Positions 45,494 through 62,332 of a DNA stretch of 64,000 nt are shown here, piece by piece. Position numbers and translations under genes: made by a program. Source of the DNA: an uncultured Acidobacteriota bacterium (GTDB taxonomy: Bacteria > Acidobacteriota > Vicinamibacteria > Vicinamibacterales > 2-12-FULL-66-21); NCBI GenBank assembly GCA_963695655.1, contig CAVOHG010000008.1:909380-973379 (forward strand). Reading direction: 5' to 3'. Under the pieces are notes generated by a model. The model worked only from the letters and a program-made list of their open reading frames with translations, searched no databases and was not told where the DNA came from. Every line of letters starts with the position of its first letter. The stretch's first letter is position 1.

Positions 45494-45928
45494 TCCCCGC
45501 TAACCCCGCACCCGCAAAGCCCTGACTTATCCCTTGCCCGTCAGCAGTAGCGATACTGACCGGCCGCCCAGATCTCTCGATCATCAGCTCTCCAGAACTT
45601 GAACTGATCCCTCAGCGGGCGCGCAACGCCTCGAGGTCAACAGCCTGTAACACGCAACTTACGTTGTTGTCGCATGCACAGGGCACAAGCAACTGAATCG
45701 GTTTCATACGCGTCAATTTGCGAGATCTACATCTTCGGTCGTTTGGCTAGTGTTTTTCGTGATTCCCAAGCCCTGGTCAATTGGATCCTGTCTGATATTC
45801 ATCCAAAACGTGGGCTCATGGGGACAGAAGTGTAATCCCTGCCACAGAATTGCACACGGGTTCACACAACCATTCCCAGCTCTTCCGCATAAACGGCAGA
45901 GATTCGCCGATTGCCGACTGAACAGTTG

Positions 45929-45944
45929 TGGCACCCCACTTGCC
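45929..45944 (+). promoter_or_regulatory. sigma-54 (-24/-12) promoter for beta-helix paralog P1
   Basis: TGGCACcccacTTGCc, a perfect TGGCAC-N5-TTGC, 120 nt upstream of the ATG at 46064 in a 570-bp lower-GC intergenic region. Confidence 0.75.
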
Positions 45945-46063
45945 CAATCCGGGGCGCCGGCTGGGATGGAACTCTCGACAAGCGCCGGCTTTCTTAAACC
46001 ACCAACTGAATCATCGCGTCGCGGGTAAGAGACCCCGCTCGGCGCGAACCAAGGGAGTCTCCG

Positions 46064-48199
46064 ATGCCGGCAGCCGTGTGTCTTCGCACCGCCGCAGTCG
46101 CGGTACCGAATCCTGGTTTCAGCACCATCTTCCGCATCGGACTTGTCACCCTCCTCACGTTTGCCGCCGTCGTCACGATCTCTCCGACATCCGCTCACGC
46201 CGCCGACGTGGTTCTCGATGCCGCGTCGGGCACGCGGGCGGGCGCCTTCGTCGTCGTCAACGACAGCGCCGCAGCTGGCGGCACCGCGGCCGCGCTGCCG
46301 AACAAGGCACGGGCGAAGGTCGTCACGGCGGTGGCGGCACCTGCTGACTACCTCGAGCTGACGTTCACGGCGGATGCGAATACGCCCTATCACCTGTGGG
46401 TTCGCATGCGCGCCGAAACCAACTCGTACGCGAACGACTCCTTCCACGTCCAGTTCACCAACGTCGTCACCGGGGCCATCGGGACCACCTCGTCACAGGT
46501 GGTCAACCTCGAGGACGCCAGCAAACTGGGCGTGACCGGGTACGGGTGGCAGGACAACGGCTACGGCGCCGGCGTACTCGGCCCTGACATCGTGTTCTCA
46601 CGCGCCGGCACGCAGCGGCTGCGCATTCAGAACCGCGAAGATGGATTCGTCATCGATCAGATCGTGCTTTCGTCGGCTACCTACCTGCGCAAATCGCCGG
46701 GCCTGCTGAAGAACGATCAGACGTGGGTGCAGGACTCGCTGCAGCGGTCGCCGATCATCCAGGTACCAGCCGGGGCCGATCTGCAGGCCGCGCTGAACGG
46801 CGCCCGATCGGGCGACACGCTCGTGCTCGAGTCCGGCGCGCGCTACGTCGCGAATATCGACCTGCCGCCGAATGACGGCCCCGAGTACATCACCATCACT
46901 TCGGACGCCAACGTACCGCCCCCGGGAACGCGTGTGTCGCCGAACCTGCTCGGGCAGCTCGCCACCATCCAGTCGCCGGACGGCTGGCCGGCCGTCGTGG
47001 CGCGAACGGGCGCCAACTACTACAAGTTCGTTGGCGTCGTGTTTCGCGGCGTCGAAGGCGTTGCCAGCGGACTCGACACGACGAGGGACATCGTCAGCGT
47101 CGGCGACGGGACGGAGACGGACTCTGCGCTGCTGCCGTCGCATTTCGTCTTCGATCGTGTTCTCATCCGGGGGGATGCGATTTACGGCGCCAAGCGCGGC
47201 ATCCTCGGCAACGGCCACGACATCACGCTCATGTACAGCGACGTACGGACCATCTTCCGAAATGGCCAGGATACGAGCGGGTTCGGCTGCTACAACTGCG
47301 GCAAGACCTACCGCATCAACCACAACTGGATCGAGGCCGGAACCGAGGTCATCCTGTTTGGCGGCGCCGCATCGCCGGCGCACACGGTGGCTGAGGACAT
47401 CATCATCGAGGACAACGTCCTGACCCGTCCGCTCGCGTGGAAGGCGCTCGCCGGGCCAACCTACAACGTGAAGAACATCCTCGAGCTGAAGGAAGGCATC
47501 GGCGTGACGGTTCGGCGGAACTACCTGGAATACAACTGGCCGCCCTCGCAGCCGGGTTATGCGGTGCTGATCACGGCGAAGGATTCGAAAAAAATCGACC
47601 GCGTCCTCTTCGAAGACAATGTCGTCAAGAGCACGGCCGGGGCGATGAACATGCTCGGCTGGGACTACGCGACGAAGCTGCTTGCACCGACGTCGAACGT
47701 GACCGTCCGGAACAACCTCTTCGTGGTCTCGAAAAAGGACTACGGCGGGACCGGCTACTTTCTGCTGATTGGGTCAGCGCCGCGGAATATCCTCTTCGAC
47801 CACAACACCATCATTCACGACGGGACGACACTGGTGAACGCTTACACCGGCACCTACATCGGAGGGGACGGAAAGACGCATACCGATGGCACGATCGACG
47901 GCTTCGTCTGGACGAACAACCTGTCGCTCAATGGCCAGTACGGGTTCAACAGCTACGGGAGCATGAACGGCGCCGGCCTGCTGGCTGCGTTCCCCGGCAT
48001 CGTGATGCATGACAACGTCCTGGCGGGTTATACCGGCAAGTCGTACCCGGCGAACAACGATTACCCGAGCGCTGCCACGTTCATGTCGTACTTCGCGGAC
48101 TTCGCCGGTGCGGACTACCGCGTCCTGGCTACCGCGCCGCTAGGATCGGACGGCAAGAGGGTGGGCGCGGACGTCTCCCGTCTGCCGTCGAGGAAATAG
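46064..48199 (+). CDS. secreted right-handed beta-helix protein, paralog P1 (N-terminal lectin/CBM-like domain plus beta-helix)
   Basis: Signal peptide ...TISPTSAHA. CBM-like domain about 46205-46708 (YHLWVRMRAETNSYANDSFHVQF...GYGWQDNGYG...RIQNREDGFVIDQIVLSS). Beta-helix with motifs shared with P2-P4 (GADLQAALNGARSGDTLVLESG; AKRGI; WIEAGTEVILFGG; YFLLIGSAPRNILFDHNTI). Confidence 0.75.
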   Translation: MPAAVCLRTAAVAVPNPGFSTIFRIGLVTLLTFAAVVTISPTSAHAADVVLDAASGTRAGAFVVVNDSAAAGGTAAALPNKARAKVVTAVAAPADYLELTFTADANTPYHLWVRMRAETNSYANDSFHVQFTNVVTGAIGTTSSQVVNLEDASKLGVTGYGWQDNGYGAGVLGPDIVFSRAGTQRLRIQNREDGFVIDQIVLSSATYLRKSPGLLKNDQTWVQDSLQRSPIIQVPAGADLQAALNGARSGDTLVLESGARYVANIDLPPNDGPEYITITSDANVPPPGTRVSPNLLGQLATIQSPDGWPAVVARTGANYYKFVGVVFRGVEGVASGLDTTRDIVSVGDGTETDSALLPSHFVFDRVLIRGDAIYGAKRGILGNGHDITLMYSDVRTIFRNGQDTSGFGCYNCGKTYRINHNWIEAGTEVILFGGAASPAHTVAEDIIIEDNVLTRPLAWKALAGPTYNVKNILELKEGIGVTVRRNYLEYNWPPSQPGYAVLITAKDSKKIDRVLFEDNVVKSTAGAMNMLGWDYATKLLAPTSNVTVRNNLFVVSKKDYGGTGYFLLIGSAPRNILFDHNTIIHDGTTLVNAYTGTYIGGDGKTHTDGTIDGFVWTNNLSLNGQYGFNSYGSMNGAGLLAAFPGIVMHDNVLAGYTGKSYPANNDYPSAATFMSYFADFAGADYRVLATAPLGSDGKRVGADVSRLPSRK

Positions 48200-48232
48200 G
48201 GACGTGTCGCGGCTCGAGGAGGGTCGATGGCT

Positions 48233-49276
48233 TCAGGCTGCAACCTCTCCCTTCAGAACCGACGAGTGGAGAAACTGGTGCCATCGGCGGCGGACAAACC
48301 CGCGATAGGCTGGCCGCAGGCTTCCGACATCGCGCTCCGCCAGCTGCGCAATATGGCAGACGGCGTGCTGAAGCAGCATCAGCGCGAAGAGCGGATCAGC
48401 GGCGGAACCTGCCGGATCGAAACTGCGGAGCAGCGCCTGCTGCACGTCGGCCACATGGTCCGGCATCAGTCGCCGCCACGAGAGCCGGTCGAAGTGGAAA
48501 AAGAGGTGAGAGACATCGTGGTGGCGGGCTCCGGACTTGGCCATTGCGAAGTCCAGGATCGTCACGCGGCCGTCGGTGCCCACGATGATGTTGGTCGGGG
48601 TGAGGTCGGCGTGGATCGCGACGAGTGGTGGCGCCGGGAGACTCACACGCGCGGCGAGCTGGTCGAAGACCCGCAGGGCGAGGGCACGATCGCCCGCCGT
48701 CAGCATGCTGTCCGCAAGCTTCACGAGTCGAATGTCCAGGTACTCCCGGCGTTCGTCGAGGGAGAGGTTCCCCTGCACCGCAGTGACCTCCTGATACGTG
48801 CGCACCCATGCGCCGACGCGCTCTGCGGCGGAGACGGCGGCTGCGCGCGGACCCGCCCCCCAGAGGGACTGGCGCAGAACCTGATCAAGGGTGCGCCCCT
48901 GTACCTGTTCGGTGACGATCGTCAGGTGCTCGGGAAGAAGCGCCAGTGGTCGGAGCGCGTTCAATCCGGGCTTGCCGGTGAACGCCTCGTGCAGCTTTCG
49001 GGTTGCTCGATATTCGCGCTCGACGAACCGCCGGAGTTGCGCCAGCTCCTCCGGACCGGACCGACGCGGCTTGAACGTCTTGATAAAGGCGTACGTGTCG
49101 GCGCCCAGCGCCCTCACCCGCACCCGCAGCAGCGCCGAAAACGGCCGCTCGTGCCGCTCGAGCGCGTGGATCGTCGCGCCCCCATCGCCGAAATACTCCT
49201 CCGCGCCTGCCGCAAGCGCGGCCAGCACAGGTTCGAAGCCGGCGACCGCCCCTGTACGGGCCCTCTTGGCGATCAT
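48233..49276 (-). CDS. aminoglycoside phosphotransferase / choline-kinase-like (APH fold) kinase
   Basis: VAIHADLTPTNIIVGTDGRVTILDFAMA: Brenner/catalytic-loop and DFxxx motifs of the APH/ePK-like fold. Confidence 0.75.
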   Translation of the reverse strand: MIAKRARTGAVAGFEPVLAALAAGAEEYFGDGGATIHALERHERPFSALLRVRVRALGADTYAFIKTFKPRRSGPEELAQLRRFVEREYRATRKLHEAFTGKPGLNALRPLALLPEHLTIVTEQVQGRTLDQVLRQSLWGAGPRAAAVSAAERVGAWVRTYQEVTAVQGNLSLDERREYLDIRLVKLADSMLTAGDRALALRVFDQLAARVSLPAPPLVAIHADLTPTNIIVGTDGRVTILDFAMAKSGARHHDVSHLFFHFDRLSWRRLMPDHVADVQQALLRSFDPAGSAADPLFALMLLQHAVCHIAQLAERDVGSLRPAYRGFVRRRWHQFLHSSVLKGEVAA

Positions 49277-49288
49277 GGGCAGACTGCG

Positions 49289-50497
49289 TCAATACGCGTG
49301 GTGAAGCTGGTCAAAGGAAGACGCGGCGTCAGCTGCGGACGCGGAACCGCGCATGCCCGCGGTGTCGGGCTTGCGGCCCACCAGAAGCGGCCGGGCAAAT
49401 CCCGGAAACGCGTGAACTTCTACGTCGGAGTAACCATTGTCGATCATCAGCTGACGCAACTGGGTTGTCTGCGCCGGCAGATTGAATATGGCGTCGTTGG
49501 CCTGCAACACAAGCGACGCACCCATGCCGGCGGCCTTCGCGATGATTCGCGCCATGTCCTCTTGCGGCAGGTAGTACAGCGAACAGAATGCGGTCACGAC
49601 GTCAAACCTGCCGAGGTCGGCCGTCAGGAAGATGCGCATATCCCCGGTCAGTACCTCGATCCGGTAGTTGCGCATGTCGCGCCAGGCGAGGATTTTCGCG
49701 TTGGTGCGCGCGAAGTCGGCGATCGCGGGCGTGAATTCCACGGCGACAACCTCCGCGGCTCCGGCGCGAAGCATCGCGAGCGGCATGGACCCGTTGTTCG
49801 AACCGAGATCGAGCACGCGCCGCCCTTTAATCAGCGGTCCGACGATGCGGCCGTTGAAGAAATCCCAACGACCGGTTCCGCTGTCGGTTGAGGCGAACTG
49901 ACCGATAGCAAGCCCGCCGCCGAAATCGATCGGCGCGTAATCGCGATAGCCTTGCGGGACATTCGCCTTGAGCGATCGCAGCTCAGACCGTGCGTCCGAT
50001 TCAGTGAGCAGAGTGGCGCCGTACCGCGCGTTGTAGGCCCGGCGGTCCGCATCGCGTTCGGCGAAGAAGTACGATCCGCGGTGTTTATGAAAACGGGCGC
50101 CCGACAGATCGCCGAAACGCGCACGTCCGTCCGGGCCGGTGGCAAAACGATGTCCGCCTCGCACTCCGGTGATCCCGGCGCCATGCGCACGGTCCATCAG
50201 AGTGGCGACATCTGCGGGAGACGCGGAACCTGGCGAAGGCGGGGCCTGCGCGTCAGCGAGGAGGTCCGCATGACGAAGCTGCTCGACGGACGCCGGTGGC
50301 GCAGTCACCCGTCCGGCAGCTTCGAATATGCGCCGGGCTGCCGCGGGAGCCGATGGTCCCCAACCGAAACGATACAGCGCCCGGGGGATGGCGAAGCCCG
50401 TCAGCAGATATCGGAAATACCCCACCCCACGGCGTCGTCCGACCGTCACCACCCCGCGCGCATCCGCCAACAAGCCCATCTGCACCTCACCCTTCAC
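49289..50497 (-). CDS. class I SAM-dependent methyltransferase with about 200-aa unassigned N-terminal region
   Basis: RRVLDLGSNNGSMPLAMLRAGAAEVVAVE (motif I) ... FDVVTAFCSLYYLP. Confidence 0.75.
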   Translation of the reverse strand: MKGEVQMGLLADARGVVTVGRRRGVGYFRYLLTGFAIPRALYRFGWGPSAPAAARRIFEAAGRVTAPPASVEQLRHADLLADAQAPPSPGSASPADVATLMDRAHGAGITGVRGGHRFATGPDGRARFGDLSGARFHKHRGSYFFAERDADRRAYNARYGATLLTESDARSELRSLKANVPQGYRDYAPIDFGGGLAIGQFASTDSGTGRWDFFNGRIVGPLIKGRRVLDLGSNNGSMPLAMLRAGAAEVVAVEFTPAIADFARTNAKILAWRDMRNYRIEVLTGDMRIFLTADLGRFDVVTAFCSLYYLPQEDMARIIAKAAGMGASLVLQANDAIFNLPAQTTQLRQLMIDNGYSDVEVHAFPGFARPLLVGRKPDTAGMRGSASAADAASSFDQLHHAY

Positions 50498-50550
50498 GGA
50501 TTGAGGTGCAAGCGGCGCGCCAGAAGCTCAGGCGGGAGACACGGCGGCGG

Positions 50551-52464
50551 TTAGCGCAAAATCCGAACGCTCGACGGCGGACGCGGCACGGGCCCGCTCA
50601 CGATCGGGGGTGGGGCGGCCGGCACCGCTGGCAGCGCCGTGATGTCGACACCGATGTTGGTTCCGTCCGTTGCCGCGCCGGCGAGGATCCCACCGGCCAC
50701 AGCCCTGTAGTCAAATGCGGCAACGTCAACGAAGGCCGAAGGAAAGGTGCCGCTGAACACATTCCCCGACGGGTAGAGCGCCGCGCTCCCACCCTGCAGC
50801 CAGTTGCGCTGAAAGAACACGCCGGGAAAATACCTCGTCAGCGTCGGGTTCCCGTACGACGATGATGCCCCGTTCATGCCGTACTTGTTGTGGCGAAGGG
50901 CATTGTTGGCGAACCGGAAGCCCAGGATCGTCCGTGGGACCGTCGCTGTGCCGCCGTAAACGTACACCGCCGTCGTCCCGTCGAAGTCGATCGTGTTGTG
51001 TTCCACCGTCACGTTGCGCGGCTCGTCGCCAATCAGCAGGAACCAGCCGTTTCCTCCGAGCGCGGTCGTGACGCCGTAGAACAGATTGTGCGCAATGGTC
51101 ACGTCGGTGGTCTGGCGCGTCGGTCGCGACGGGATGTCATACCCCAGGAGGTTGATGCCAGCCGCGACGTTCCGAACAATGTTGAATCGGAACGTCACGT
51201 TGTCCACACCGCACCACGTGCACGCGCCTCCGGAATTTCTCGGCGTGAAGACGATCGCGTAGCCGGCTTGCGCCTGCTGCCAGTGATTCTCGAACACGTT
51301 CTGTTCGACGACCACGTTCCGGGCATTCTTCAATTCGAACACGTTCTTGACGACCCAGTAGGTCTCGCCCGACGTCGGCACCGCTTCGGCGGTCCCCGGC
51401 GAACCCCGGTCTGTGAACTCGGTCCCGGTCACGGTCCAGTACATGGACTCGCTCCCGCTAACGCGTCCGTAGACCCGATACTCCGTCGCGTCGTTCACGC
51501 GCTGCCAGGCGATCCGGATTCCGGCGCCGGTTGCGGCGGACACGGTCGCAACAGTTTCGGCTGACGCCAGCGACCGTCCGGTTGTTCCCTGACCGACCGG
51601 CCGCCGCGCTACCACGCGATAAGCGTACGCCCCGGGCCCCAGTGTCCCTCCGCCGGTCACTGCGGCGGCCGACACTGCGATCGGCGCCGGCACGATCGGA
51701 TCCCTCCAGGCCATCGGACGCGAAAGTTGGTTCTTGCGGAAGGTGATGCCGGTCGGCACCAGGTCGGTAATGGCGGGATCCGATCCGCCGAACATCACGT
51801 TCTCGCCTGCCGCCTCCAGGTAATTGTTTTCGATCGTGAATGGTCCGGGGCCGTTCCATCCGGCAATCGCCTGCGTGTCCATGCCGACACCCTTGCACTC
51901 GGAGACGTACGAGTCCCGAATGGTGACGGAGGCGGCGTTGAGTGCGATGCCGCGCTTCTGTCCGAGGAGCGGATCGCCATGCACGTACAGATGATCGAGG
52001 ATCAAGTCGTGCGGAATCTGATCCGCGGAGTTCTGTGCGCTCGATCCGTCGCCGAGCTGGATGACGTCGCCGCTGCCGTCGACATTGGCCGCGAAGGCGA
52101 GATAGCTGAGACGCCAGTGGTGCGCAGAAGGAGCCGTGCGAATCGCCGCCATGGTGTTCGGCGAGCGGAGTGTCGGCAGCAGTCGCAGGTGTGACGGGCC
52201 GATCCGGGCGCCGTCGGCGGGCAGCTGCGTGTCGGCGGTTGCGGAACGTACTCTGATGAAGCCTGCACCGCTGGTAACCGGCAACACGAAGTTGCCGACA
52301 TATTCGGCTCCCGCGTCGAGCAGAATCACGTCGCCCGGCTTCGCCGCGTCCAGTGCCGCCTGGAGATCCCCCCCCGCGGCAACTCGGACTGTGGCCGCCT
52401 CGGCGCTCACGGTCCAGAGCACGATCCCCGCCACGGCCAGCATCGCACGCGTGCGCGCGGTCAT
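50551..52464 (-). CDS. secreted right-handed beta-helix protein, paralog P2 (with FN3-like insert)
   Basis: Signal peptide MTARTRAMLAVAGIVLWTVSAEA. GGDLQAALDAAKPGDVILLDAG; HGDPLLGQKRGI; DTQAIAGWNGPGPFTIENNYLEAAGENVMFGG. Insert YRVVARRPVG...IRIAWQRVNDATEYRVYG. Confidence 0.75.
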   Translation of the reverse strand: MTARTRAMLAVAGIVLWTVSAEAATVRVAAGGDLQAALDAAKPGDVILLDAGAEYVGNFVLPVTSGAGFIRVRSATADTQLPADGARIGPSHLRLLPTLRSPNTMAAIRTAPSAHHWRLSYLAFAANVDGSGDVIQLGDGSSAQNSADQIPHDLILDHLYVHGDPLLGQKRGIALNAASVTIRDSYVSECKGVGMDTQAIAGWNGPGPFTIENNYLEAAGENVMFGGSDPAITDLVPTGITFRKNQLSRPMAWRDPIVPAPIAVSAAAVTGGGTLGPGAYAYRVVARRPVGQGTTGRSLASAETVATVSAATGAGIRIAWQRVNDATEYRVYGRVSGSESMYWTVTGTEFTDRGSPGTAEAVPTSGETYWVVKNVFELKNARNVVVEQNVFENHWQQAQAGYAIVFTPRNSGGACTWCGVDNVTFRFNIVRNVAAGINLLGYDIPSRPTRQTTDVTIAHNLFYGVTTALGGNGWFLLIGDEPRNVTVEHNTIDFDGTTAVYVYGGTATVPRTILGFRFANNALRHNKYGMNGASSSYGNPTLTRYFPGVFFQRNWLQGGSAALYPSGNVFSGTFPSAFVDVAAFDYRAVAGGILAGAATDGTNIGVDITALPAVPAAPPPIVSGPVPRPPSSVRILR

Positions 52465-52593
52465 GGGACCACCACCAAGTCACACATCCGCCGCAGCGCG
52501 GCGGCCGTCCTTCTGGACATCCACATGCACTTCCCCCGGGGTCCGTGTTGGTTGAAAACCGCAACCGCAAGACGGCAGCGGCAACCGTCGAGG

Positions 52594-52609
52594 CGCAAGG
52601 CCGATGCCT
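52594..52609 (-). promoter_or_regulatory. candidate sigma-54 promoter for P2-methyltransferase-kinase operon
   Basis: Minus strand reads aGGCATcggccTTGCg (GG-N10-GC spacing correct), about 130 nt upstream of the start at 52464. An AT-rich tract with a small hairpin (gcaaaaa ggaa tttttgc) lies just upstream. Confidence 0.6.
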
Positions 52610-52858
52610 TGGCGGGGCGAGAAGCAAAAAGGAATTTTTGCTGGTCTTTTTGCGCGTTTAGCCGGTGTGTGGCGTAGGAAAAGGCGGGATGTTATTACAG
52701 ATTTGTCGAGGGGTTCACTGAACTGCCCTCGCGACGTGCGCTGGAATCAACGAACCGGCGGGGCCCTGTGGAGGACCCGCGAGCCAAAAGGGCTCGCCGG
52801 TCGGAATGGTCTGTTCGACTCGGCGATCGGTGGCGCGGAGTTCGGGACGTGTCTCTGA

Positions 52859-54439
52859 CTATTGCCGCCGTCGCGATGTATCGCCGGTGGACTCGCTCGA
52901 TGCCGGCCGCTGCCGGCCACCTGGAGCGGCGGCCGAAATGTCGGCACCGAGGTCGTGGCGGTCGATGCCGCCGAGCCGATAGGGGGTGCTCGAAGCGAGC
53001 CGGTAATCCTGATCGGCAAAGTTGACGAACTGGCGCGCGAACTCTGCTTCGCTCGGGAACTCGTTACCCGGCGGGTACCGCGTCGCGCGGCCGCCGGCGA
53101 TCACATTGCGTGTGAAGACGGCATCGGGAAAGAACGTATCGAGCGTGTCCTGCCCGATCGCGCGACCCTGCCCATGGACGCCGTTGGCGTTGTGGAGCGT
53201 GAGATTGTTCGTGAAAGTGAAGTCCTCGATCGGCGTCGGGTTGCTGCCCGACCCTCCATACGCGCTGATGATGTCGCCCCTCTGGATGATCGTGTTATGG
53301 TCCACGACGATGTGCATCGGTCCGTTGCCGATCAGCAGGAAGAAGCCGTTCCCTCCCCAGCGCGCCTGATCGAAACTGTAAAACTGGTTGTTCAATATCC
53401 GGATCCGCTGCGCCAGCCCGCTCGGACCTGCGTCGTCGTGGCCGGAGATATTGATCGCGGCCGCAATGTTACGGACCACGTTGAATTGGAAGGTCACATC
53501 CTCGACCACCGCCCAGGACGCCTTCCCCCGTTCACCGCGCGGTGTGAGGACGATGGCGTAGCCCGCCTGCGCACCGGCCCAGTGGTGCTCGAAAACATTT
53601 CGTTCAATCAGGACGCGGCGCGCATTCTTCAGTTCGAGCAGATTCTTGACGTCCCAGCGCTCCTGGCGCCAGGATTCAGGTCGCGTGACATTGTTGCCGC
53701 GAAAGACGACGTCGGAGGGCACGATCCCCGAGATCCCGGGCTCCGCGCCGCCGAGCATGAAGTTCTCTCCCGCAGCTTCCAGGTAGTTGTTCTCGATCGT
53801 GAACGGCCCGGGACCATTCCAGCCGGCAATCGCCTGAGAGTCCTGGGACGCCGATTTGATGTCGGAGATGTACGACCCCCGAACGGTCGTCGACGCACTG
53901 TTCAAGCCGATTCCGCGCTTCTGCCCGTTGTCGGGATCCCCGTGGATGTAGCAGCGGTCGACCGTCAGGTCGTGGGGGACGTCGGACAGTGAATTCTGGC
54001 TCAGGGAGCCGTCGCCCAGATCGATGATCGTCCCGTTGCCTCCCTGGTTGGCCTGAAACTCGAGAAACAGCAGGCGCCAATGATGCGCCCGGGGTTCGGT
54101 GCGCATCGCTGGCTGCCCGTTGGAGGAATGCACCTTGGCGAGCGGCGCCGCGAGCTCGGGCGTCATCCGCCCGCTGCTCGAAACAGGATCTGTGGCGGTG
54201 GCGGTGCGGACGGTGATGACCTGACTGCCCGCTTTCGCCCGCAGGACGAAATTCCCGACGAATGTGGCTCCGGGCGGGAGGGTAATCGTGTCTCCTGGCT
54301 GCGCGCTATCGAGCGCCGCCTGTAAGTCTCCTCCGGCTCGGACCGGGATTGTGTCGGCGAACGCCCCGGGGGCGACGCCGAGACTGAGACTCGCCGCGAC
54401 AAAACAAACTCTGACGGCGGCGAAATGCTGATCAATCAC
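52859..54439 (-). CDS. secreted right-handed beta-helix protein, paralog P3 (minimal architecture)
   Basis: GTG start. GGDLQAALDSAQPGDTITLPPG; HGDPDNGQKRGI; DSQAIAGWNGPGPFTIENNYLEAAGENFMLGG; FFLLIGNGPMHIVVDHNTI. Confidence 0.75.
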   Translation of the reverse strand: MIDQHFAAVRVCFVAASLSLGVAPGAFADTIPVRAGGDLQAALDSAQPGDTITLPPGATFVGNFVLRAKAGSQVITVRTATATDPVSSSGRMTPELAAPLAKVHSSNGQPAMRTEPRAHHWRLLFLEFQANQGGNGTIIDLGDGSLSQNSLSDVPHDLTVDRCYIHGDPDNGQKRGIGLNSASTTVRGSYISDIKSASQDSQAIAGWNGPGPFTIENNYLEAAGENFMLGGAEPGISGIVPSDVVFRGNNVTRPESWRQERWDVKNLLELKNARRVLIERNVFEHHWAGAQAGYAIVLTPRGERGKASWAVVEDVTFQFNVVRNIAAAINISGHDDAGPSGLAQRIRILNNQFYSFDQARWGGNGFFLLIGNGPMHIVVDHNTIIQRGDIISAYGGSGSNPTPIEDFTFTNNLTLHNANGVHGQGRAIGQDTLDTFFPDAVFTRNVIAGGRATRYPPGNEFPSEAEFARQFVNFADQDYRLASSTPYRLGGIDRHDLGADISAAAPGGRQRPASSESTGDTSRRRQ

Positions 54440-54456
54440 TTATTGCTCACTTCGGG

Positions 54457-57429
54457 TTATCCAAATGCTGTGCCAGCGAGAGATGCGCGCGGTGACATAT
54501 ACCAGGGGTCATCCGGCAGCACTAACAGATTAAATCGAGGCGCGCTGGTTGATATCGCGCCCGGAGGTCCGCCGAGTGACCTCCGGGGGGCCGTAGACAA
54601 ATGGGTGCGGTCGAGCGCGAGTGGGTCCGCGACGTCTGGACTGATGTAAGGACCTGAAGCTGGCGCGACCAGGCTCGACGACGCGCCGCCAACCGTCGCG
54701 GTCGTCTGCCCGGTGTTCGACAACCCCTCATCATCGGTCACGGTCAGAAGCACTGGGTAGGTTCCGGGCCGCGCGTAATGATGAGAGGTGCTTGCGCCGG
54801 GCGCCGTGCCGATCGACGCCGGCACGACTGTCGTGTCGTTGCGGGTGGCGCCCGGTGCGGACTGGTAGTACTCGCTCGAGCTGAGGATCAACTGATCCCA
54901 GGCGATCCCGTCTTCGCGCGCCTGGATCCGAATGGTCTGGAAGCCTGACGCCGCGAAATAGATTGGCGGGGCGAGGCTGCCGTACGCGCCGTCATTCCAA
55001 CCCCAGCCCGAGACGCCGACGCCCTGGGCGTCCTCGAGGACGACCGCCATGCCCGACGTCGTACCGATACGCGCCAGGGGTGCTCCGGACTGATCGATCG
55101 CGCCGCTGAACTGCACGTACAGCGAGTCGTTCGAGTAGGAGTTCCCGGCTGCCTGCATCCGCATCCACAGCCGATACGGTACTCCGGCGGCAACCGCAAC
55201 TCGGAACTCCACGAAACTGCTGGGAGCGGCGAGCGCCGTCGTCAGTTTCGCCGCACCGCGATCCGGATTGCGCAGAGCCGTCCCCCCGGCGGCGCCGGCG
55301 ACCGATTCTTTCACCCACGCGGTCCCGTGGACGGCCGCCGCGGGCAGACTGGCCGCACGCACCAGCAGTTCGTCGCCCCATTGCCAGGTGAAATCCACGA
55401 TCGAGCCGTCGGGATCCGATGATGCCGTTCCGCTTACCGGCAGAGCCACACCGGCGAGGCCGGTGTAGGGACCGCCCGGACGTGCAACGGGCGCCTGGTT
55501 GGACGGGTCGGTCGGCGGCGGCGGGGGCGGTGGCGGTGGCGCATCCGTCGAACCCGGGACCCCCGCCATCGCTGCCGACAAGGCGGTAAAATCCACGCCC
55601 GGTGTGCGGCCCGAACAACCAGCGGACGCCACGGCGCTGCCGGCACGGAGCCGGTAGTCCTCGGCCGCGGGATTCTGAAATGACGCGGTCCACTCTGCCG
55701 TCGTGGGGAACGCGTTGGGCTTCGGATAGAGCGATGCCGAGCCTCCGGCCAGCACGTTACAGGAAACCGTTGAACTGGGGAAATAACGGGTGATCGTCGG
55801 TATGCCGGTGGTGGAACCGTCCCCCATTATCCCGTATTTATTGTGGAGCGAGATGTTGTCCGTGTAGACGAAGGAGGGAATCGTCCGCGTGCCGTATGCG
55901 TAAACGACCGAGCTGTTCGTATGCACGAGCGTGTTGTTGTCGATCGTGACCTCGGATGGGCCGTCGCCGATGAGGAACGCCTTGGCCAACCCGCCATACG
56001 TCGTGTTGTTGATGTCGTACATGAGGTTGTTGCGGACGGTGATGCGTTCGGTCCGCAGGGTGACGCCAGTGTCGTCGAACCCTGACAGATTCAGCACCCC
56101 GGCGGCGCGGCGGATCGTGTTGTTCTGGATGACGATGTCGCGTACGCGTGACCACGGCGCAGTATTGGCCGCGTTGCGGGGAGTCAGCACGATGGCGTAA
56201 CCATACTGGCCGGCCGACCAGATGTTTTCGAGGACATTGCCCTCGACCCGCACCCGTTCCGCGTTCTTCATTTCGAGGATGTTCTTCACCACCCACTTCG
56301 TGCCGGAACTGGCGGGTGTCCCGGACAGCTCGGACGCGCCGGTATATGTAAAGCTTGTCGCCGAGGACGGCGTATCGACATACACATTTTCCGCGCCCGG
56401 CGTCGTCGACCGGTAGATTCTGTACCGATCCGCCCCCGTCGTACCCGACCAGCTCAGTGTGACGGCGCGGCCGGCGGGCACTGACAAAGAGACTTCGGTC
56501 GAGGGCGCGGATAGCGCCACTCGAGTGCCCGTCGTCATCACTGCAACGACGCGGAAATAGTGGGTCGCGGCCTTGAGCACTCCCGTACCCGCGAGAGCGA
56601 CTTTGGCAGATCCGGGTGTGGCGAGGATGGCGTTTCGCCACGCGAACGGCTTGGTCAACGTGTTGCGACGCACCGAGATATCGGAGGGGACGAGACCCGT
56701 GATCGCCGGATCGGCGCCGCCAAACAGAATGTTCTCCGCCGCGGCTTCGATGTAGTTGTTGTCGATCGTCAGGGGCCCCGCGCCGTTGTAGCCGACGATG
56801 CCCTGGGAGTCGGCGTTCACCGCCTTGATATCGGAGATATAGCTGCCGAGGACAGAGAGTCGGACGCCATTGAGCGTCAGGCCGCGTTTCTGCCCCTTGT
56901 AGCGATGCCCGTGGACGTAAACGCGGTCGAGCACGACGTCGCTCGGCGGCGCGACCGACGTATCTTCACCGAGTTGAATCAGCGTCTCGTATCCGACGTG
57001 CTCGACACCGTCGAACTCGAGAAACCGCAGCCGGTATCCATGCGCGCCCGGCTCCGCGCGTAACAGGGGCGCCGTCTTGTAGGCGCCGCCTTTGCCGATG
57101 ATTCGAGCGAGCAGCGTTCGCGAGGTATTCGAGGCGGGCCGGTCGTTCGGCACCAGGCGGACACCCGCGGCGGGGAACACCGAATCGGCTGCATCCGACC
57201 GGATATCGATCCAACCCGTTCCGCTCTTCGCCCGGAGCACGAGATGGACGACGAAGGTTTCGCCGGCGCGCAGGAGCACAGTGTCTCCATAGTGGGCCGC
57301 ATCGACGGCCGCCTGCGGACTTGTATAGGTGCACCCGGACGCGCACACGCTAAGGGTGGCCCCCCGCACGGGAGCAACGCAGATGCCCAGAATGCCGAGG
57401 GCAAGCGGAAGCAGCAACCGATGTCTCAT
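54457..57429 (-). CDS. secreted right-handed beta-helix protein, paralog P4 (beta-helix with FN3-like insert, poly-Pro linker, PKD domain carrying a nested lectin/CBM-like domain)
   Basis: 990-aa ORF. Signal peptide MRHRLLLPLALGILGICVAPVRG. DSQGIVGYNGAGPLTIDNNYIEAAAENILFGG. PPPPPPPPP at 55513-55539. PKD halves SSDPDGSIVDFTWQWGD and HHYARPGTYPVLLTVTDDEG flank a copy of the P1 CBM-like domain. Confidence 0.75.
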   Translation of the reverse strand: MRHRLLLPLALGILGICVAPVRGATLSVCASGCTYTSPQAAVDAAHYGDTVLLRAGETFVVHLVLRAKSGTGWIDIRSDAADSVFPAAGVRLVPNDRPASNTSRTLLARIIGKGGAYKTAPLLRAEPGAHGYRLRFLEFDGVEHVGYETLIQLGEDTSVAPPSDVVLDRVYVHGHRYKGQKRGLTLNGVRLSVLGSYISDIKAVNADSQGIVGYNGAGPLTIDNNYIEAAAENILFGGADPAITGLVPSDISVRRNTLTKPFAWRNAILATPGSAKVALAGTGVLKAATHYFRVVAVMTTGTRVALSAPSTEVSLSVPAGRAVTLSWSGTTGADRYRIYRSTTPGAENVYVDTPSSATSFTYTGASELSGTPASSGTKWVVKNILEMKNAERVRVEGNVLENIWSAGQYGYAIVLTPRNAANTAPWSRVRDIVIQNNTIRRAAGVLNLSGFDDTGVTLRTERITVRNNLMYDINNTTYGGLAKAFLIGDGPSEVTIDNNTLVHTNSSVVYAYGTRTIPSFVYTDNISLHNKYGIMGDGSTTGIPTITRYFPSSTVSCNVLAGGSASLYPKPNAFPTTAEWTASFQNPAAEDYRLRAGSAVASAGCSGRTPGVDFTALSAAMAGVPGSTDAPPPPPPPPPTDPSNQAPVARPGGPYTGLAGVALPVSGTASSDPDGSIVDFTWQWGDELLVRAASLPAAAVHGTAWVKESVAGAAGGTALRNPDRGAAKLTTALAAPSSFVEFRVAVAAGVPYRLWMRMQAAGNSYSNDSLYVQFSGAIDQSGAPLARIGTTSGMAVVLEDAQGVGVSGWGWNDGAYGSLAPPIYFAASGFQTIRIQAREDGIAWDQLILSSSEYYQSAPGATRNDTTVVPASIGTAPGASTSHHYARPGTYPVLLTVTDDEGLSNTGQTTATVGGASSSLVAPASGPYISPDVADPLALDRTHLSTAPRRSLGGPPGAISTSAPRFNLLVLPDDPWYMSPRASLAGTAFG

Positions 57430-57470
57430 CGTACTCCTGAAGAAGAGTCTGAACTTGAGACAGCGCTTGG

Positions 57471-57486
57471 TGCATCGGATGTGCCT
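57471..57486 (-). promoter_or_regulatory. candidate sigma-54 promoter for P4-P3 operon
   Basis: Minus strand reads aGGCACatccgaTGCA (GGCAC-N6-TGCA, GG-N10-GC spacing correct), about 45 nt upstream of the ATG at 57429. Confidence 0.6.
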
Positions 57487-57634
57487 GCCGTCGTAAAAGC
57501 ATTACTTACAATGCTTTACTGAAGTCGCGCTGATCTGGCTCGAGGGCTGCGTCCGGTAACGCAACTGAGCCTTATGTAGTACTTACCTCGCCGGGAGAAA
57601 AAGGCAGGACCGCGACGATATACCGATGCGCGAA

Positions 57635-57865
57635 TTAAGCGGCGCGCCGCACAGCCGCCGCGAGACCGATCAGCGCGGTGCCTACGAGCACCATCGCGGC
57701 CTCGTCACGCATTCCGGTGGCAGGAATCCCTACGCGCTGGACGGCTACCGGTGCCGCCGCATTCTCGCGCGGCTCAGCAGCCGCCCCGCGGCCGGCGGCC
57801 GCGACCGAAACGACCGCTGCCGCGGCCAGCACTGCAAACAAGACAACCACGAACTGCCTACGCAT
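57635..57865 (-). CDS. small secreted protein with C-terminal sorting-signal-like tail
   Basis: 76 aa from an internal ATG: MRRQFVVVLFAVLAAAAVVSVAAAG (signal peptide), a short Ala/Pro-rich core, then GIPATG-MRDEAAMVLVGTALIGLAAAV-RRAA. Confidence 0.45.
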   Translation of the reverse strand: MRRQFVVVLFAVLAAAAVVSVAAAGRGAAAEPRENAAAPVAVQRVGIPATGMRDEAAMVLVGTALIGLAAAVRRAA

Positions 57866-57976
57866 GACCCTGTGACCTCTGTCGTTCTCTGAATCGGCCG
57901 CCGGATATTTCCGCGACGCGCGGTGAGGCGACCTCATCGGTAATGCATGCGCTCACGCATCACCAACGTTCGACGC

Positions 57977-57992
57977 TACAAGCGACGTGCCA
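57977..57992 (-). promoter_or_regulatory. weak sigma-54-like site upstream of the small gene
   Basis: Minus strand reads TGGCACgtcgcTTGTa: perfect -24 element, but -12 is TTGT instead of TTGC. About 110 nt upstream of 57865. Confidence 0.3.
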
Positions 57993-58205
57993 GTCACAAC
58001 ACGAACATTAAGGCGCTATCGTGAATCTTGCGCTCCGCGGGCAGTGAGGACGTGGAATACTTTTTCCCAAGTTCGCCCAATCAGAGGATTCCAGGCTGTT
58101 GAGGTACGCTTTTTGAATACAAGTCGTATCCGAGTTGAGACTGTGTTACCTGAACTACCCATCGGCTGGGTCGTACACCCACCATATTTCCCTGCAGGGA
58201 GTTAG

Positions 58206-59720
58206 ATGAAGAACCCCTACGTCGCCATTGTGGACGACGACTCGTCGTTTGCGAACTACTTGCGGACGTTCCTTTCGCTGCGTGGTTACGAAGCTCGGTG
58301 CTACACGCGCGGCGACGAACTGCTCGCATCGATGAAGCAGACCGAGGCGCCAGACGTGATCCTGCTCGACGTCATGATGCCCGGTCTCGACGGCCTCGCT
58401 ACGCTGCGGGCTCTCAAAGCCTCCCGCCCCGAGGCGCAGGTCATCATGCTCTCGGGCCGGAACCAGGCCTCGACGATCGTGGAAGCGGTCCGCCTCGGAG
58501 CGGCTGACTACGTCGTCAAGCCGGACGATCCTGAAGGTCTCGGCGAGATTGCGCTCGACGTGGCGATCAAGAATGCGATCGAGAAGAACCGCCTCGTGAC
58601 CGAGCTCCTCGACCTCCGGCAGCAGCTGAGCGACGACGAGGATCGCGCGGTCTGGGGTAACTCCGAGAAGATGCGGGGGATCGCCACGGTGATCGAGCAG
58701 GTCGCGGATAGCGACGTCACCGTCCTCATCCGTGGAGAGAGCGGCGTGGGCAAGGAGCTGGTGTCGCGCGCCATTCACCAGCGGTCGACGCGACGCAACC
58801 GCCCGTTCGTCAAGGTCAACTGCGCCGCGCTTCCGGCCGAGCTGCTCGAAAGCGAGCTCTTCGGCCACGAACGGGGAGCGTTCACCGGCGCCGCCACGAC
58901 CCGAATCGGAAAGTTCGAACAGGCCGACACCGGCACGCTGATGCTCGACGAAATCGGCGAGATGAAGCCGGCGCTGCAAGCCAAGCTGCTCCACGTTCTG
59001 CAGGACGCCGAGTTCACCAAGCTTGGCAGCAACAAGCGGATCCAGGTCGACGTCCGCATCGTCGCCGCCACCAACCGTGACCTCGAGAAGATGATGCTGA
59101 GCGGCGATTTCCGGGAGGATCTCTATTACCGGCTCAAGGTCATCGAGCTGACCGTTCCGTCGCTGCGCGAGCGCCCTGACGAGGTCCCGACGCTCACCGA
59201 TTTTTTTGTCGCCCGATACTCACGCAAATACAACCGCCCGCTGCGGCCGATCTCGGATGAGCTTCGGCAGCTCTTTCTCCAGTACGACTGGCCGGGGAAC
59301 ATCCGCGAGCTCGAGAACATGATCAAGCGCGTCGTAATCCTCCAGGACGAGCATCTGGTCGTTCACGAGATCCAGCGGAACCTTCAGCGCCACGCGGCCA
59401 TGCAGGTCGCGGCAGTCGCACCCGTGACGATGGCGGCGGCCGTCGGCATCCCGGTCGCGGCAGGCGTTGGTGCGATGCCAGGCTCTTTCGGTCCGCCTGA
59501 GCTCGACACGGAATCGACCGACGAGCCGGAGTCGATTGAAGAAGGGAATGGATCGCTCGCTTCAGTCGCGAAGGCCGCATCGATGAAGGCTGAGCGCGCG
59601 GCGATCGAACAGACGCTCGGGCAAGTGCACTGGAACCGACGCAAGGCGGCTCAGATTCTGGGTGTGAGCTACAAGACGCTGCTCAATAAAATCAAGGAGT
59701 GTGGCATCAGCCGCGCCTGA
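58206..59720 (+). CDS. sigma-54-dependent response regulator (REC-AAA+-Fis HTH), NtrC/PrsR-like
   Basis: REC with DVILLDVMMPGLDG. AAA+ GESGVGKE. GAFTGA loop (ERGAFTGA). HTH NRRKAAQILGVSYKTLLNKIKECGI. An unusual ~70-aa Ala/Val/Pro-rich linker precedes the HTH. Confidence 0.93.
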   Translation: MKNPYVAIVDDDSSFANYLRTFLSLRGYEARCYTRGDELLASMKQTEAPDVILLDVMMPGLDGLATLRALKASRPEAQVIMLSGRNQASTIVEAVRLGAADYVVKPDDPEGLGEIALDVAIKNAIEKNRLVTELLDLRQQLSDDEDRAVWGNSEKMRGIATVIEQVADSDVTVLIRGESGVGKELVSRAIHQRSTRRNRPFVKVNCAALPAELLESELFGHERGAFTGAATTRIGKFEQADTGTLMLDEIGEMKPALQAKLLHVLQDAEFTKLGSNKRIQVDVRIVAATNRDLEKMMLSGDFREDLYYRLKVIELTVPSLRERPDEVPTLTDFFVARYSRKYNRPLRPISDELRQLFLQYDWPGNIRELENMIKRVVILQDEHLVVHEIQRNLQRHAAMQVAAVAPVTMAAAVGIPVAAGVGAMPGSFGPPELDTESTDEPESIEEGNGSLASVAKAASMKAERAAIEQTLGQVHWNRRKAAQILGVSYKTLLNKIKECGISRA

Positions 59721-59733
59721 GCCGTATCGCGAA

Positions 59734-59763
59734 GAGGGAATGATCGTTCGCGATCATTCCCTC
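59734..59763 (+). terminator. hairpin terminator between the two bEBP genes
   Basis: Perfect 13-bp stem gagggaatgatcg / cgatcattccctc closed by a TTCG loop, followed by a moderately T-rich tract (ctgttcttcc). Confidence 0.6.
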
Positions 59764-59894
59764 CTGTTCTTCCCTCTCGTCTACCTACAGTAAGCACCCA
59801 GCTTCCACATTCACTCCCGCTCACCTCCCCGACCACGTCAGTTAGCAGTCGCAACGCCGAGCGTTTTCCATACAACGCGAAACATTTTCTCTCG

Positions 59895-59910
59895 TGGCAC
59901 CCACCTTGCT
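59895..59910 (+). promoter_or_regulatory. sigma-54 (-24/-12) promoter for the second bEBP / EPS export operon
   Basis: TGGCACccaccTTGCt, a perfect TGGCAC-N5-TTGC, 60 nt upstream of the ATG at 59970. Confidence 0.8.
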
Positions 59911-59969: not shown

Positions 59970-61094
59970 ATGAACGATCGCGACAAGGCCGGCCGCGGCG
60001 AACCTGACGTGCCGGAGGGCGGCGAGCGCCGCCACGGCCGTCCCACGCGTGTCATCGGCGAGCTCCTGGGCACGAGCGACAAGATGCGGGAGGTGCGCGA
60101 TCTCATCGATCGCGTCGCTGACACCGACGTCACCGTGCTGGTGCGTGGCGAGAGCGGCACCGGTAAGGAGCTCGTTGCGCGCGCCATCCACGCCAGCTCG
60201 CCGAGGAAGAACCGCACGTTCGTGAAGGTGAATTGCGCGGCGTTGCCGTCCGAACTCCTCGAATCCGAGCTCTTCGGTTTCGAGCGTGGCGCATTCACCG
60301 GCGCGATTCAGCAGAAACCGGGAAAGTTCGAATTCGCGCACGAAGGGACGATGTTTCTCGACGAGATCAGCGAGATGCATCCGCCGCTTCAATCCAAGCT
60401 GCTGCAGGTGCTTCAGGACGGCGAGTTCGCGCGACTTGGCGGCCGCGAAGATGTCCACGTCGATGTTCGCATCGTCGCCGCCACCAACCGCGATCTCGAG
60501 GTCGCGGTCGCTGACGGCCACTTTCGCGAGGACCTGTTCTTCCGGTTGAACGTGGTCTGCATCACGCTGCCGCCGCTGCGTCAGCGGCGCGACGAGATCC
60601 CCGTGCTGACCGAACGCTTCCTGCGCCAGTACGCGGAGCACTACAACAAGCCCCCGATCACGCTGGCCGCCGAGACGATGCGGCTGTTCGGGGTCTACGA
60701 CTGGCCCGGCAACGTGCGGGAGCTCGAGAACCTGCTGAAGCGGGCGGTCGTTCTTGGTTCCGACGAATCGATCCGTCGTGAGCTTGCGGAAAACATCGCC
60801 GGACGGACGCCCGTGCCGGGAACGATCCCGGCGCTGCAGTCGCGAGCAGAGGTGGACGTCGCGGTCGCGCCGGCGGTGATCGCCGGGGCCGAGGGAGTGG
60901 CGCTGCCTCCCGCGCTCTCGGGGTCGCTCAAGGACATCGCGCGCCATGCCGCGCGCGAAGCCGAGCGCGAACTGATCTATCGCACGCTGCAGCAGACGCG
61001 CTGGAACCGCCGGGAAGCAGCGGAAATCCTGGGCGTCAGCTACAAGGCGCTGCTCTACAAAATCAAGGAAGCGGAGCTCGACAAGGCATCGTGA
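59970..61094 (+). CDS. sigma-54-dependent transcriptional activator lacking a receiver or sensory domain (AAA+-Fis HTH only)
   Basis: Only about 35 aa precede the AAA+ core (GESGTGKE, ERGAFTGA). HTH NRREAAEILGVSYKALLYKIKEAEL. Confidence 0.9.
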   Translation: MNDRDKAGRGEPDVPEGGERRHGRPTRVIGELLGTSDKMREVRDLIDRVADTDVTVLVRGESGTGKELVARAIHASSPRKNRTFVKVNCAALPSELLESELFGFERGAFTGAIQQKPGKFEFAHEGTMFLDEISEMHPPLQSKLLQVLQDGEFARLGGREDVHVDVRIVAATNRDLEVAVADGHFREDLFFRLNVVCITLPPLRQRRDEIPVLTERFLRQYAEHYNKPPITLAAETMRLFGVYDWPGNVRELENLLKRAVVLGSDESIRRELAENIAGRTPVPGTIPALQSRAEVDVAVAPAVIAGAEGVALPPALSGSLKDIARHAAREAERELIYRTLQQTRWNRREAAEILGVSYKALLYKIKEAELDKAS

Positions 61095-61570: not shown

Positions 61571-61584
61571 CCGAAGGTGAGTGT

Positions 61585-62307: not shown

Positions 62308-62332
62308 GACCGGAGAGACACCGAGGCAACTC

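Follow-up and report, generated by a model that had tools for sequence, protein, structure and literature searches.

Members of the Vicinamibacterales (Acidobacteria subdivision 6) count among the most abundant bacteria of soils, and to our knowledge almost nothing in their gene regulation has been studied experimentally. Here, we analysed a 64-kb stretch of DNA from one uncultured member of this order (GenBank assembly GCA_963695655.1, contig CAVOHG010000008.1, positions 909,380 to 973,379; hereafter the window, to which all coordinates refer). The focus is on a cluster of -24/-12 motifs that a preliminary description of the sequence had read as promoters for RNA polymerase carrying the sigma-54 factor, and on two genes in the same cluster for bacterial enhancer-binding proteins (bEBPs), named bEBP1 and bEBP2. 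We found nothing specific in the literature on sigma-54 in Acidobacteria or Vicinamibacteria.

Housekeeping and sugar-catabolism genes fill the first 45 kb of the window. Genes were mapped by frame analysis based on third-codon-position G+C content (GC3), combined with Pfam and NCBIfam searches. The genes of the locus and its borders are:

44756-45493 (+): small HisKA protein (Pfam HisKA, 3.7e-12; partial kinase matches in NCBIfam)
46064-48199 (+): P1, secreted protein in which a CBM6/35-like domain precedes a right-handed beta-helix (AlphaFold2, Foldseek, BLASTP)
48233-49276 (-): APH-type kinase-like protein (Pfam APH; GC3 frame analysis)
49289-50497 (-): methyltransferase, probable ATG at 50479 (Pfam Methyltransf_25; GC3 frame analysis)
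50551-52464 (-): P2, secreted beta-helix paralogue (Pfam Beta_helix; BLASTP)
52859-54439 (-): P3, secreted beta-helix paralogue (BLASTP against P1, P2 and P4)
54457-57429 (-): P4, secreted paralogue with beta-helix and PKD domains (Pfam PKD_4 and Beta_helix; BLASTP)
57635-57865 (-): small open reading frame (ORF) of 76 amino acids, ATG at 57865 (start fixed by a conserved leader and ATG)
58206-59720 (+): bEBP1, with receiver, AAA+ and HTH_8 domains (Pfam)
59970-61094 (+): bEBP2, with AAA+ and HTH_8 domains only (Pfam; Sigma54_activat from residue 33)
61091-61570 (+): degenerate GGDEF-like protein (NCBIfam GGDEF, 31 bits, below cut-off)
61468-62307 (+): Poly_export/SLBB export protein, start uncertain (Pfam; TIGR03027, 123.9 bits versus a cut-off of 180)
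62297-63463 (+): putative outer-membrane protein (Pfam; weak TIGR03016 match)

The methyltransferase and APH-type kinase-like genes form a two-gene unit (48233-50497, -). A 554-amino-acid ORF on the opposite strand (48227-49891, +) was rejected as a shadow frame antisense to these two genes, given its high first-position G+C content (GC1), its lower GC3 and the - strand genes called in relatives. For comparison, eight related loci were fetched via homologues of P1 and about twenty via bEBP1 (labelled L001-L029); the close homologues of P1 belong to Acidobacteriota, and the orthologues of bEBP1 (56-94% identity) to Vicinamibacterales, 'gp6' and Luteitalea metagenome-assembled genomes.

Promoter motifs were sought as exact matches to TGGCAC-N5-TTGC and with a 16-position -24/-12 weight matrix, which was modelled on the published consensus and is approximate, and whose thresholds were picked after the data had been seen. 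The sites lying in front of the genes of the locus are the following, with matrix scores in bits:

45929-45944 (+): predicted P1 promoter TGGCACcccacTTGCC, perfect consensus, 120 nucleotides (nt) from the -12 C to the ATG at 46064
50507-50522 (-): predicted methyltransferase promoter TGGCGCgccgcTTGCA in the gap between P2 and the methyltransferase, score 13.8, 28 nt before the ATG at 50479
52594-52609 (-): probable weak P2 promoter AGGCATcggccTTGCG, score 8.7
54460-54475 (-): doubtful P3 site TGGCACagcatTTGGA, TGGCAC-N5-TTGG, 21 nt before the P3 start
57471-57486 (-): probable P4 promoter AGGCACatccgATGCA, score 12.4, 42 nt before the ATG
57977-57992 (-): predicted sigma-54-type promoter of the 76-amino-acid ORF TGGCACgtcgcTTGTA, with a non-canonical -12 element, assigned on conservation
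58102-58117 (+): candidate bEBP1 promoter AGGTACgctttTTGAA, score 9.7, 89 nt before the ATG
59895-59910 (+): predicted promoter of bEBP2 and its operon TGGCACccaccTTGCT, perfect consensus and best matrix score (16.2), 60 nt before the ATG at 59970

Six of these sites had been inventoried in the preliminary description, including the near-consensus pair on the - strand before P2 and P4; all six are present and face the next gene downstream, and the strong site at 50507-50522 (-) and the candidate at 58102-58117 had been overlooked. The two sites then described as defective in the -12 element, before the small ORF (TTGT) and before P3 (TTGG), are both present and call for two corrections: the gene behind the former is the 76-amino-acid ORF, and the latter lies inside the last codons of P4. 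Taken together, the sites face the next gene at 21-130 nt from its start codon and, the P3 site excepted, are non-coding. The GG-N10-GC arrangement is found at the P1 and bEBP2 sites (both perfect) and at the methyltransferase, P2 and P4 sites; in place of GC at -12, GA is found in the bEBP1 candidate, GG in the P3 site, and GT in the small-ORF site of the window, with GA at the latter in other clades.

An exact search of the 64 kb returned TGGCAC-N5-TTGC only twice, at 45929-45943 (+) and 59895-59909 (+), which bears out the earlier statement, made by eye, that no further perfect match lies in the window. The chance expectation, formerly put at about 0.1, was computed as 0.14; two or more perfect sites were reached in none of 100 dinucleotide shuffles, and the background of the exact pattern is 0.12 per 64 kb (2 in 1.03 Mb of unrelated loci). 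With the weight matrix, seven matches of at least 12 bits were obtained in the window versus 2.8 expected, a count reached by 3% of the shuffles. Six of these seven best matches fall in 45.9-59.9 kb, a clustering seen in none of 300 shuffles, and the seventh (12.7 bits) lies within a gene at 33601. Across all loci, the best upstream score has a median of 8.7 bits for the beta-helix paralogues versus 4.2 bits for control genes (Mann-Whitney p = 9e-7, the orthologues being non-independent samples), and an upstream match of at least 7 bits precedes 81% of the former versus 17% of the latter. By itself, composition lends modest support to a promoter cluster.

The decisive evidence in support of promoter function comes from footprinting in up to 12 related Vicinamibacterales loci, where the half-sites appear fixed and the spacer and flanks free to vary. 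Before P1, GGCAC-N5-TTGC is unchanged in seven lineages with the spacers CCCAC, CAGCC, TTGCC and CCCAT (alignment A1), within DNA much of which is only about 60% identical between lineages. The bEBP2 site, TGGCA[CT]-N5-TTGCT, is the sole invariant block in 12 lineages, with at least seven different spacers, the intergenic DNA being otherwise almost unalignable. At the methyltransferase, TGGCG[C/T]-N5-TTGCA is kept with varying spacers in L003, L004 and L008, and a near-identical motif occurs in L024, where the gene context was not checked. The small-ORF site was found in at least 10 lineages with variable sequence on both sides, as TGGCA[C/T]-N5-TTGTA in the clade of the window and with TTGAA in distant clades.

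At the other sites, conservation takes different forms. The P2 site (AGGCAT-N5-TTGC) is shared only by L003 and L004, with a spacer change, and other clades carry CGGAAC-N5-TTGCG at 65-74 nt from the start of P2; similarly, the P4 site (AGGCAC-N5-ATGC) is common only to the window, L003 and L004, and other clades carry TGGCCG-N5-TTGCG at 39-41 nt from the start of P4. Both look like cases of promoter turnover with function kept, and constitute weaker evidence than the invariant sites. For the bEBP1 candidate, the core GTTGAGGTAC-N5-TTG[A/T]AT is kept in eight of nine alignable lineages, the ninth (L029) having a 1-nt insertion in the spacer. Among the relatives, only the closely related L003 and L004 retain the P3 site, with a synonymous substitution as its sole change; L001 and L006, which have P3 next after the small ORF, lack it. 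Since it lies inside P4 codons, coding constraint explains its conservation equally well, and its role as a promoter is doubtful.

The observed motifs with their placement, orientation and selective conservation, the domains of the activators, the paralogy and fold of the target proteins and the type of locus lead us to regard the 45.9-64 kb region as, very likely, a sigma-54-dependent regulon in a Vicinamibacterales extracellular-polysaccharide locus. This single regulon would span the locus, with a minimum of four sigma-54-type promoters and probably six to eight, and probably continues past 64 kb. The promoter-cluster reading of the preliminary description thereby stands for P1, the small ORF and bEBP2 through their footprints, and extends to the methyltransferase; it stands in part for P2 and P4, and is doubtful for P3, whose site is inseparable from coding constraint.

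Several points weigh against a sigma-54 regulon. The plain pattern with one mismatch is not enriched in the window (6 matches versus 3.95 expected), so that the weak sites cannot rest on statistics alone, and the matrix carries the approximations given above. The canonical -12 C is missing from the bEBP1 candidate and, in all lineages examined, from the small-ORF site, where it is never present and its 'defect' is therefore a conserved feature; the sites of P2 and P4 match weakly and vary in sequence from clade to clade; and the P3 site sits in the last codons of P4 (LAGTAFG-stop) with GG at -12. No sites were found near the bEBP1 orthologues of 67-70% identity (L016-L020), among which L016 is a Luteitalea metagenome-assembled genome, no 7- to 10-mer is common to at least four of the five promoter regions compared, and no rpoN lies within the 64 kb, although the two GAFTGA activators speak indirectly for a sigma-54 gene elsewhere in the genome. 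As to the -12 position, natural sigma-54 promoters with T are known, that of E. coli pspA for example, and T or A there is unusual but not unprecedented.

Some of these points can be assembled into a narrower account, in which only the P1, methyltransferase, small-ORF and bEBP2 sites are real, those of P2, P4, P3 and bEBP1 are chance matches, and the corresponding genes are read from unrecognised sigma-70-type promoters or by read-through. The near-background scores of the P2 site (8.7 bits) and the bEBP1 candidate (9.7 bits) would fit such an account, as would the variation of the P2 and P4 sites by clade, the intragenic position of the P3 site together with its absence from L001 and L006, and the insertion in L029. 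However, GG-N10-GC with TTGC or ATGC is kept in every clade, at a similar distance before P2 and P4, despite replaced surroundings; the beta-helix paralogues far exceed the control genes in upstream matches (81% versus 17%); and no sigma-70-consensus promoter was found in 45.4-61.2 kb, versus 1.9 expected. We consider this account unlikely.

Two further explanations concern the nature of the motifs themselves. The elements without the -12 C (TGGCAC-N5-TTGT/TTGA before the small ORF and AGGTAC-N5-TTGAA before bEBP1) could be, instead of sigma-54 promoters, the sites of another regulator, or places where the sigma-54 holoenzyme binds in a regulatory, non-productive manner; non-canonical and intragenic sigma-54 binding is reported as widespread in E. 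coli (PMC4591121), the missing C is part of the defining GC and is absent in all lineages examined, and both elements stand back to back in one divergent intergenic region with a nearly invariant block of ~130 nt. Against this, the -24 half is a perfect TGGCAC, the spacing from GG to the G at -13 is exact in all lineages but one, and a promoter would agree with the orientation and, in the four closest loci, with the distance of 111-115 nt to the start codon, itself conserved. This explanation is very improbable. Least credible of all is that the motifs are functionless chance matches in G+C-rich DNA. The one-mismatch count is indeed not above expectation, and the 12.7-bit match within the gene at 33601 shows that chance matches arise, but two perfect sites versus 0.14 expected, a clustering unmatched in 300 shuffles and, above all, half-sites invariant in up to 12 lineages amid varying spacers and flanks already contradict it.

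A sigma-54 regulon requires activators, and the sequences of bEBP1 and bEBP2 have the expected features: strong matches to PF00158 (3e-72 and 8.5e-71, respectively), an HTH_8 domain and, as noted from the outset, an intact GAFTGA loop (residue 224 in bEBP1, residue 107 in bEBP2). The best NCBIfam matches of bEBP1 are AtoC, NtrC and PrsR, each below its cut-off, and an exact-sequence look-up returned no record. Its receiver pocket is complete by sequence reading (DD10-12, D55, K105). bEBP2 has no sensory domain, and its ATG is conserved. In one relative, an N-terminally extended form of 450 amino acids is called; the conserved ATG of the 374-amino-acid form identifies this call as an over-extension, and the extended form is ruled out by that ATG together with the promoter upstream of the 374-amino-acid form and the terminator after bEBP1. 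Two neighbours may act on these activators. The small HisKA protein is cytoplasmic and sensor-less, with an H-box and a degenerate ATPase part, and is syntenic with the cluster in L001, L003, L005 and L006, which makes it a candidate phosphodonor to bEBP1. The GGDEF-like protein (159 amino acids, with ANGRL replacing GGDEF/GGEEF) starts by overlapping the stop codon of bEBP2; its pairing with bEBP2 is conserved in relatives, and it is syntenic in L002, L005 and L006.

From these elements we infer the use of the promoters by sigma-54, the pairing of activators with promoters, the kinase partner and a regulatory cascade. Sigma-54 RNA polymerase would bind the -24/-12 promoters of at least four units, namely P1, the methyltransferase-kinase pair, the 76-amino-acid peptide, and bEBP2 with the export operon, probably also those before P2 and P4-P3, and possibly that before bEBP1. 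The closed complexes would stay silent until remodelled by a local AAA+ activator, bEBP1 or bEBP2. As bEBP1 is a response regulator with a complete receiver pocket, it would need phosphorylation and be switched by it, the syntenic small HisKA protein being the candidate donor. Since bEBP2 lacks a sensory domain and lies behind the best promoter, its amount would depend on sigma-54 and an activator; it would hence be controlled mainly through its own sigma-54 promoter, in a two-tier cascade that starts from bEBP1, in a positive loop, or in a combination of the two. Through its translational coupling, the GGDEF-like protein perhaps modulates bEBP2, a speculation by analogy with PspA/PspF and with activators responsive to cyclic di-GMP. 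The output would be a co-ordinated, tight off/on production of secreted beta-helix glycan-active enzymes, a small anchored peptide and polysaccharide export machinery.

How the activators find their promoters is less readily read from the DNA. The preliminary description had envisaged an upstream activation sequence shared by the bEBP-dependent promoters, and this expectation was not borne out: k-mer comparisons revealed no motif common to the promoters, with 38 shared 12-mers (at most two mismatches) among the five promoter regions versus 33.7 in shuffles. As no shared upstream site was found, the wiring of activators to promoters is conjecture. Conserved blocks are present at single promoters, as a dyad and an inverted repeat before P1, a ~130-nt block between the small ORF and bEBP1, and short blocks before bEBP2. 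Those before P1 are:

45831-45846 (+): dyad TGTAAT-N7-ACA (TGT-N10-ACA), about 99 nt upstream of the -24 GG of P1, in a conserved block of alignment A1
45880-45901 (+): inverted repeat CTCTnCCG-N6-CGGCAGAG, located 30-50 nt before the -24 element of P1, conserved (A1, columns 188-216)

The exact TGT-N10-ACA is found before P1 in the window, L003, L004, L006 and L008, and is missing at the other promoters of the locus. The dyad resembles the upstream elements of NifA-dependent promoters, and is a candidate activator-binding site.

Regarding the regulated genes, P1-P4 are paralogues with signal-peptide-like N-termini (BLASTP 1e-25 to 1e-128, with 1e-84 to 1e-128 for P2 versus P3 and P4). The AlphaFold2 model of P1 (mean predicted local distance difference test, pLDDT, of 81.6) displays a CBM6/35-like domain followed by a right-handed beta-helix, and its best Foldseek matches are GH87 alpha-1,3-glucanases, PL6 alginate lyases, AlgE/AlgG mannuronan epimerases, GH110 enzymes and capsule depolymerases or phage tailspikes. 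Sequence searches of P1 and P2 against the PDB returned nothing significant, fold comparison alone being informative. From the structural matches of the P1 model, P1-P4 are probably enzymes that, once secreted, cleave or modify a polysaccharide. The CBM6/35-like domain of P1 (46064-46750, residues about 45-230) shares 45% identity with a domain inside P4 (residues 691-877). Many other secreted enzymes of acidobacteria contain a stretch 50-60% identical to roughly one quarter of P1, among them phospholipase D-like proteins, metallophosphatases, subtilisins and proteins of the endonuclease/phosphatase family. No PEP-CTERM-like tail was found at the C-termini of P1-P4.

The 76-amino-acid protein belongs to an uncharacterised family of at least 978 metagenome proteins and consists of a signal peptide, a short variable part and a nearly invariant C-terminal half, VAVQRVxxPATGLRDEAAMVLVGTALIGLAAAVRRAA (alignment A8). 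Its C-terminus has the layout of a sorting signal, in which a transmembrane helix and a basic tail come after a motif. The protein marginally passes the LPXTG_anchor model (17.2 bits, cut-off 15.9) and, despite its transmembrane helix and RR tail, has no match at E <= 10 to the PEP-CTERM model (TIGR02595). Bearing on a possible role as LPXTG sortase substrate, PATG is kept in the close family and lost in the distant orthologues of L013, L015 and L028. Some family members are labelled 'LPXTG-motif cell wall-anchored' by the Joint Genome Institute (JGI), which is odd for a diderm acidobacterium.

The export operon led by bEBP2 runs beyond the end of the window. In L029, its order is export protein, XrtA-type chain-length determinant, tyrosine autokinase and TIGR03013 glycosyltransferase of the XrtA/PEP-CTERM system; the last scores 469 bits versus a cut-off of 393, and the TIGR03027, TIGR03007 and TIGR03018 matches of L029 are below their cut-offs.

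The closest described system is the PrsK/PrsR regulon, which the locus resembles while differing in the traits that define membership. That regulon (Haft et al. 2006, PMC1569441) consists of genes for PEP-CTERM proteins that neighbour EpsH/XrtA polysaccharide loci. Most of these genes form units of their own and are preceded by long regions in which an activator motif of 17 nt ('motif 1', ending in TTTACA) lies about 63 nt upstream of a sigma-54 motif, itself 23-221 nt before the start codon; it was described in Proteobacteria only (PMC1569441). Likewise, the present locus has sigma-54 motifs in long intergenic regions before mostly single-gene units for secreted or anchored proteins, at 21-130 nt from the start, within or just below that range; polysaccharide export and biosynthesis genes adjoin, an NtrC-type response-regulator activator is encoded locally, and the glycosyltransferase of L029 is above the TIGR03013 cut-off. 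In contrast, the host belongs to Acidobacteriota, and neither activator reaches the PrsR cut-off: bEBP1 scores 372.5 bits on TIGR02915 (cut-off 502.6), and bEBP2 328.7 bits with no receiver domain. There is no adjacent PrsK-type transmembrane kinase, only the small soluble HisKA protein being syntenic, and a second activator without a sensory domain is present here. PEP-CTERM tails are lacking in the main targets, which are beta-helix enzymes; the small peptide has no match to the PEP-CTERM model, and no common 'motif 1' was found among the promoter regions.

Compared with the canonical sigma-54 systems (NtrC/glnAp2, NifA/nifH, PspF/pspA), the locus shares TGGCAC-N5-TTGC with GG-N10-GC, and activators with GAFTGA and a Fis-type helix-turn-helix; bEBP1 is an NtrC-like response regulator, and bEBP2 has the PspF/HrpS-like architecture without a regulatory domain. 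It differs in the regulated functions, in two promoters whose conserved -12 element lacks the C, in a sensor-less activator behind a sigma-54 promoter, and in that neither bEBP1 nor bEBP2 reaches the cut-off of any named NCBIfam equivalog. In the survey of Francke et al. (2011, PMC3162934), sigma-54 promoters and activators were tied genetically to exopolysaccharide transport and biosynthesis, and a general control of the bacterial exterior was ascribed to sigma-54. The association with polysaccharide and cell-exterior genes found here follows that theme, although 'Acidobacteria' is absent from the text of the survey and, as far as checkable, neither the beta-helix family nor the 76-amino-acid peptide is among its described targets.

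The regulatory principle is that of textbooks. Modest surprises are that promoters without the -12 C are conserved, that an activator with no sensor is preceded by a sigma-54 promoter of its own, and that a small anchored peptide is among the predicted targets. A bolder proposal, which we offer tentatively and consider rather doubtful, is that the locus is an acidobacterial counterpart of the PrsR/PEP-CTERM system wired wholly via sigma-54. Both activators, one of them sensor-less, would lie behind -24/-12 promoters, TGGCAC-N5-TTGA/TTGT would be a conserved promoter class without -12 C, and the most tightly conserved target would be the 76-amino-acid peptide, abundant in soil metagenomes and carrying an undescribed tripartite sorting signal (PATG-RDEAA, transmembrane helix, RRAA-COOH). 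In any case, the locus offers a concrete, testable regulon: a handful of conserved promoters, the two activators, a possible kinase for bEBP1, and target proteins whose probable role is the building or remodelling of an extracellular polysaccharide matrix. Such matrices matter for soil aggregation and cell persistence. It would extend the link of sigma-54 with polysaccharide and sorting-signal loci beyond the Proteobacteria, where it was described, and supplies natural, conserved examples of promoters without -12 C.

Additional elements were found between the genes. Transcription units are set apart by terminator-like hairpins:

57493-57519 (-): terminator-like hairpin after the small ORF, directly upstream of the P4 promoter
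59734-59763 (+): intrinsic-terminator-like hairpin of 13 bp after bEBP1, conserved (alignment A4), followed by a T/C-rich run

The arms of the former differ between the window and L003/L004 and are complementary in each (alignment A5). The ~130-nt block (58052-58191) is almost 100% identical in relatives whose P1 is at 79-83% identity, and holds the candidate bEBP1 promoter as well as a TGGAA-N7-TCCCA dyad; its predicted folding is no stronger than that of shuffled sequences (z = 0.08), and Rfam returned no match for it. In P1, the 5' leader (45950-46063, +) is strongly conserved and includes the stretch CGCGGGTAAGAGACCCCGC as well as a GCCGGC...GCCGGC hairpin with TTTCTT behind it; here again, folding is unexceptional (z = -0.65), with no covarying pair and no Rfam match. 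At E <= 1, the only Rfam match in 44-64 kb is a spurious CRISPR repeat (E = 0.57).

Gene order differs by clade. In the window and in L003/L004, the small ORF and P3 are separated by an inserted P4; in L001 and L006/L009, P4 instead stands next to P1, the two genes diverging from one intergenic region, P2 has the opposite orientation, and nothing separates P3 from the small ORF. The promoter-like elements travel with their genes in both arrangements. Outside the region covered by the window, four relatives have conserved sigma-54-like sites (TGGCACgaNNNNTGCT) at a distance of 8-9.8 kb downstream from bEBP1 (L009:21040, L028:21335, L013:14604 and L029:19659, all +); that of L029 comes after the polysaccharide genes and before a CofD/YvcK-like gene. 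A perfect site, TGGCACctcgtTTGCT, is found in L007 (3043-3058, +), 124 nt before a Polysacc_synt_3 (flippase-type) gene that heads a glycosyltransferase cluster adjoining P2 and P1 homologues.

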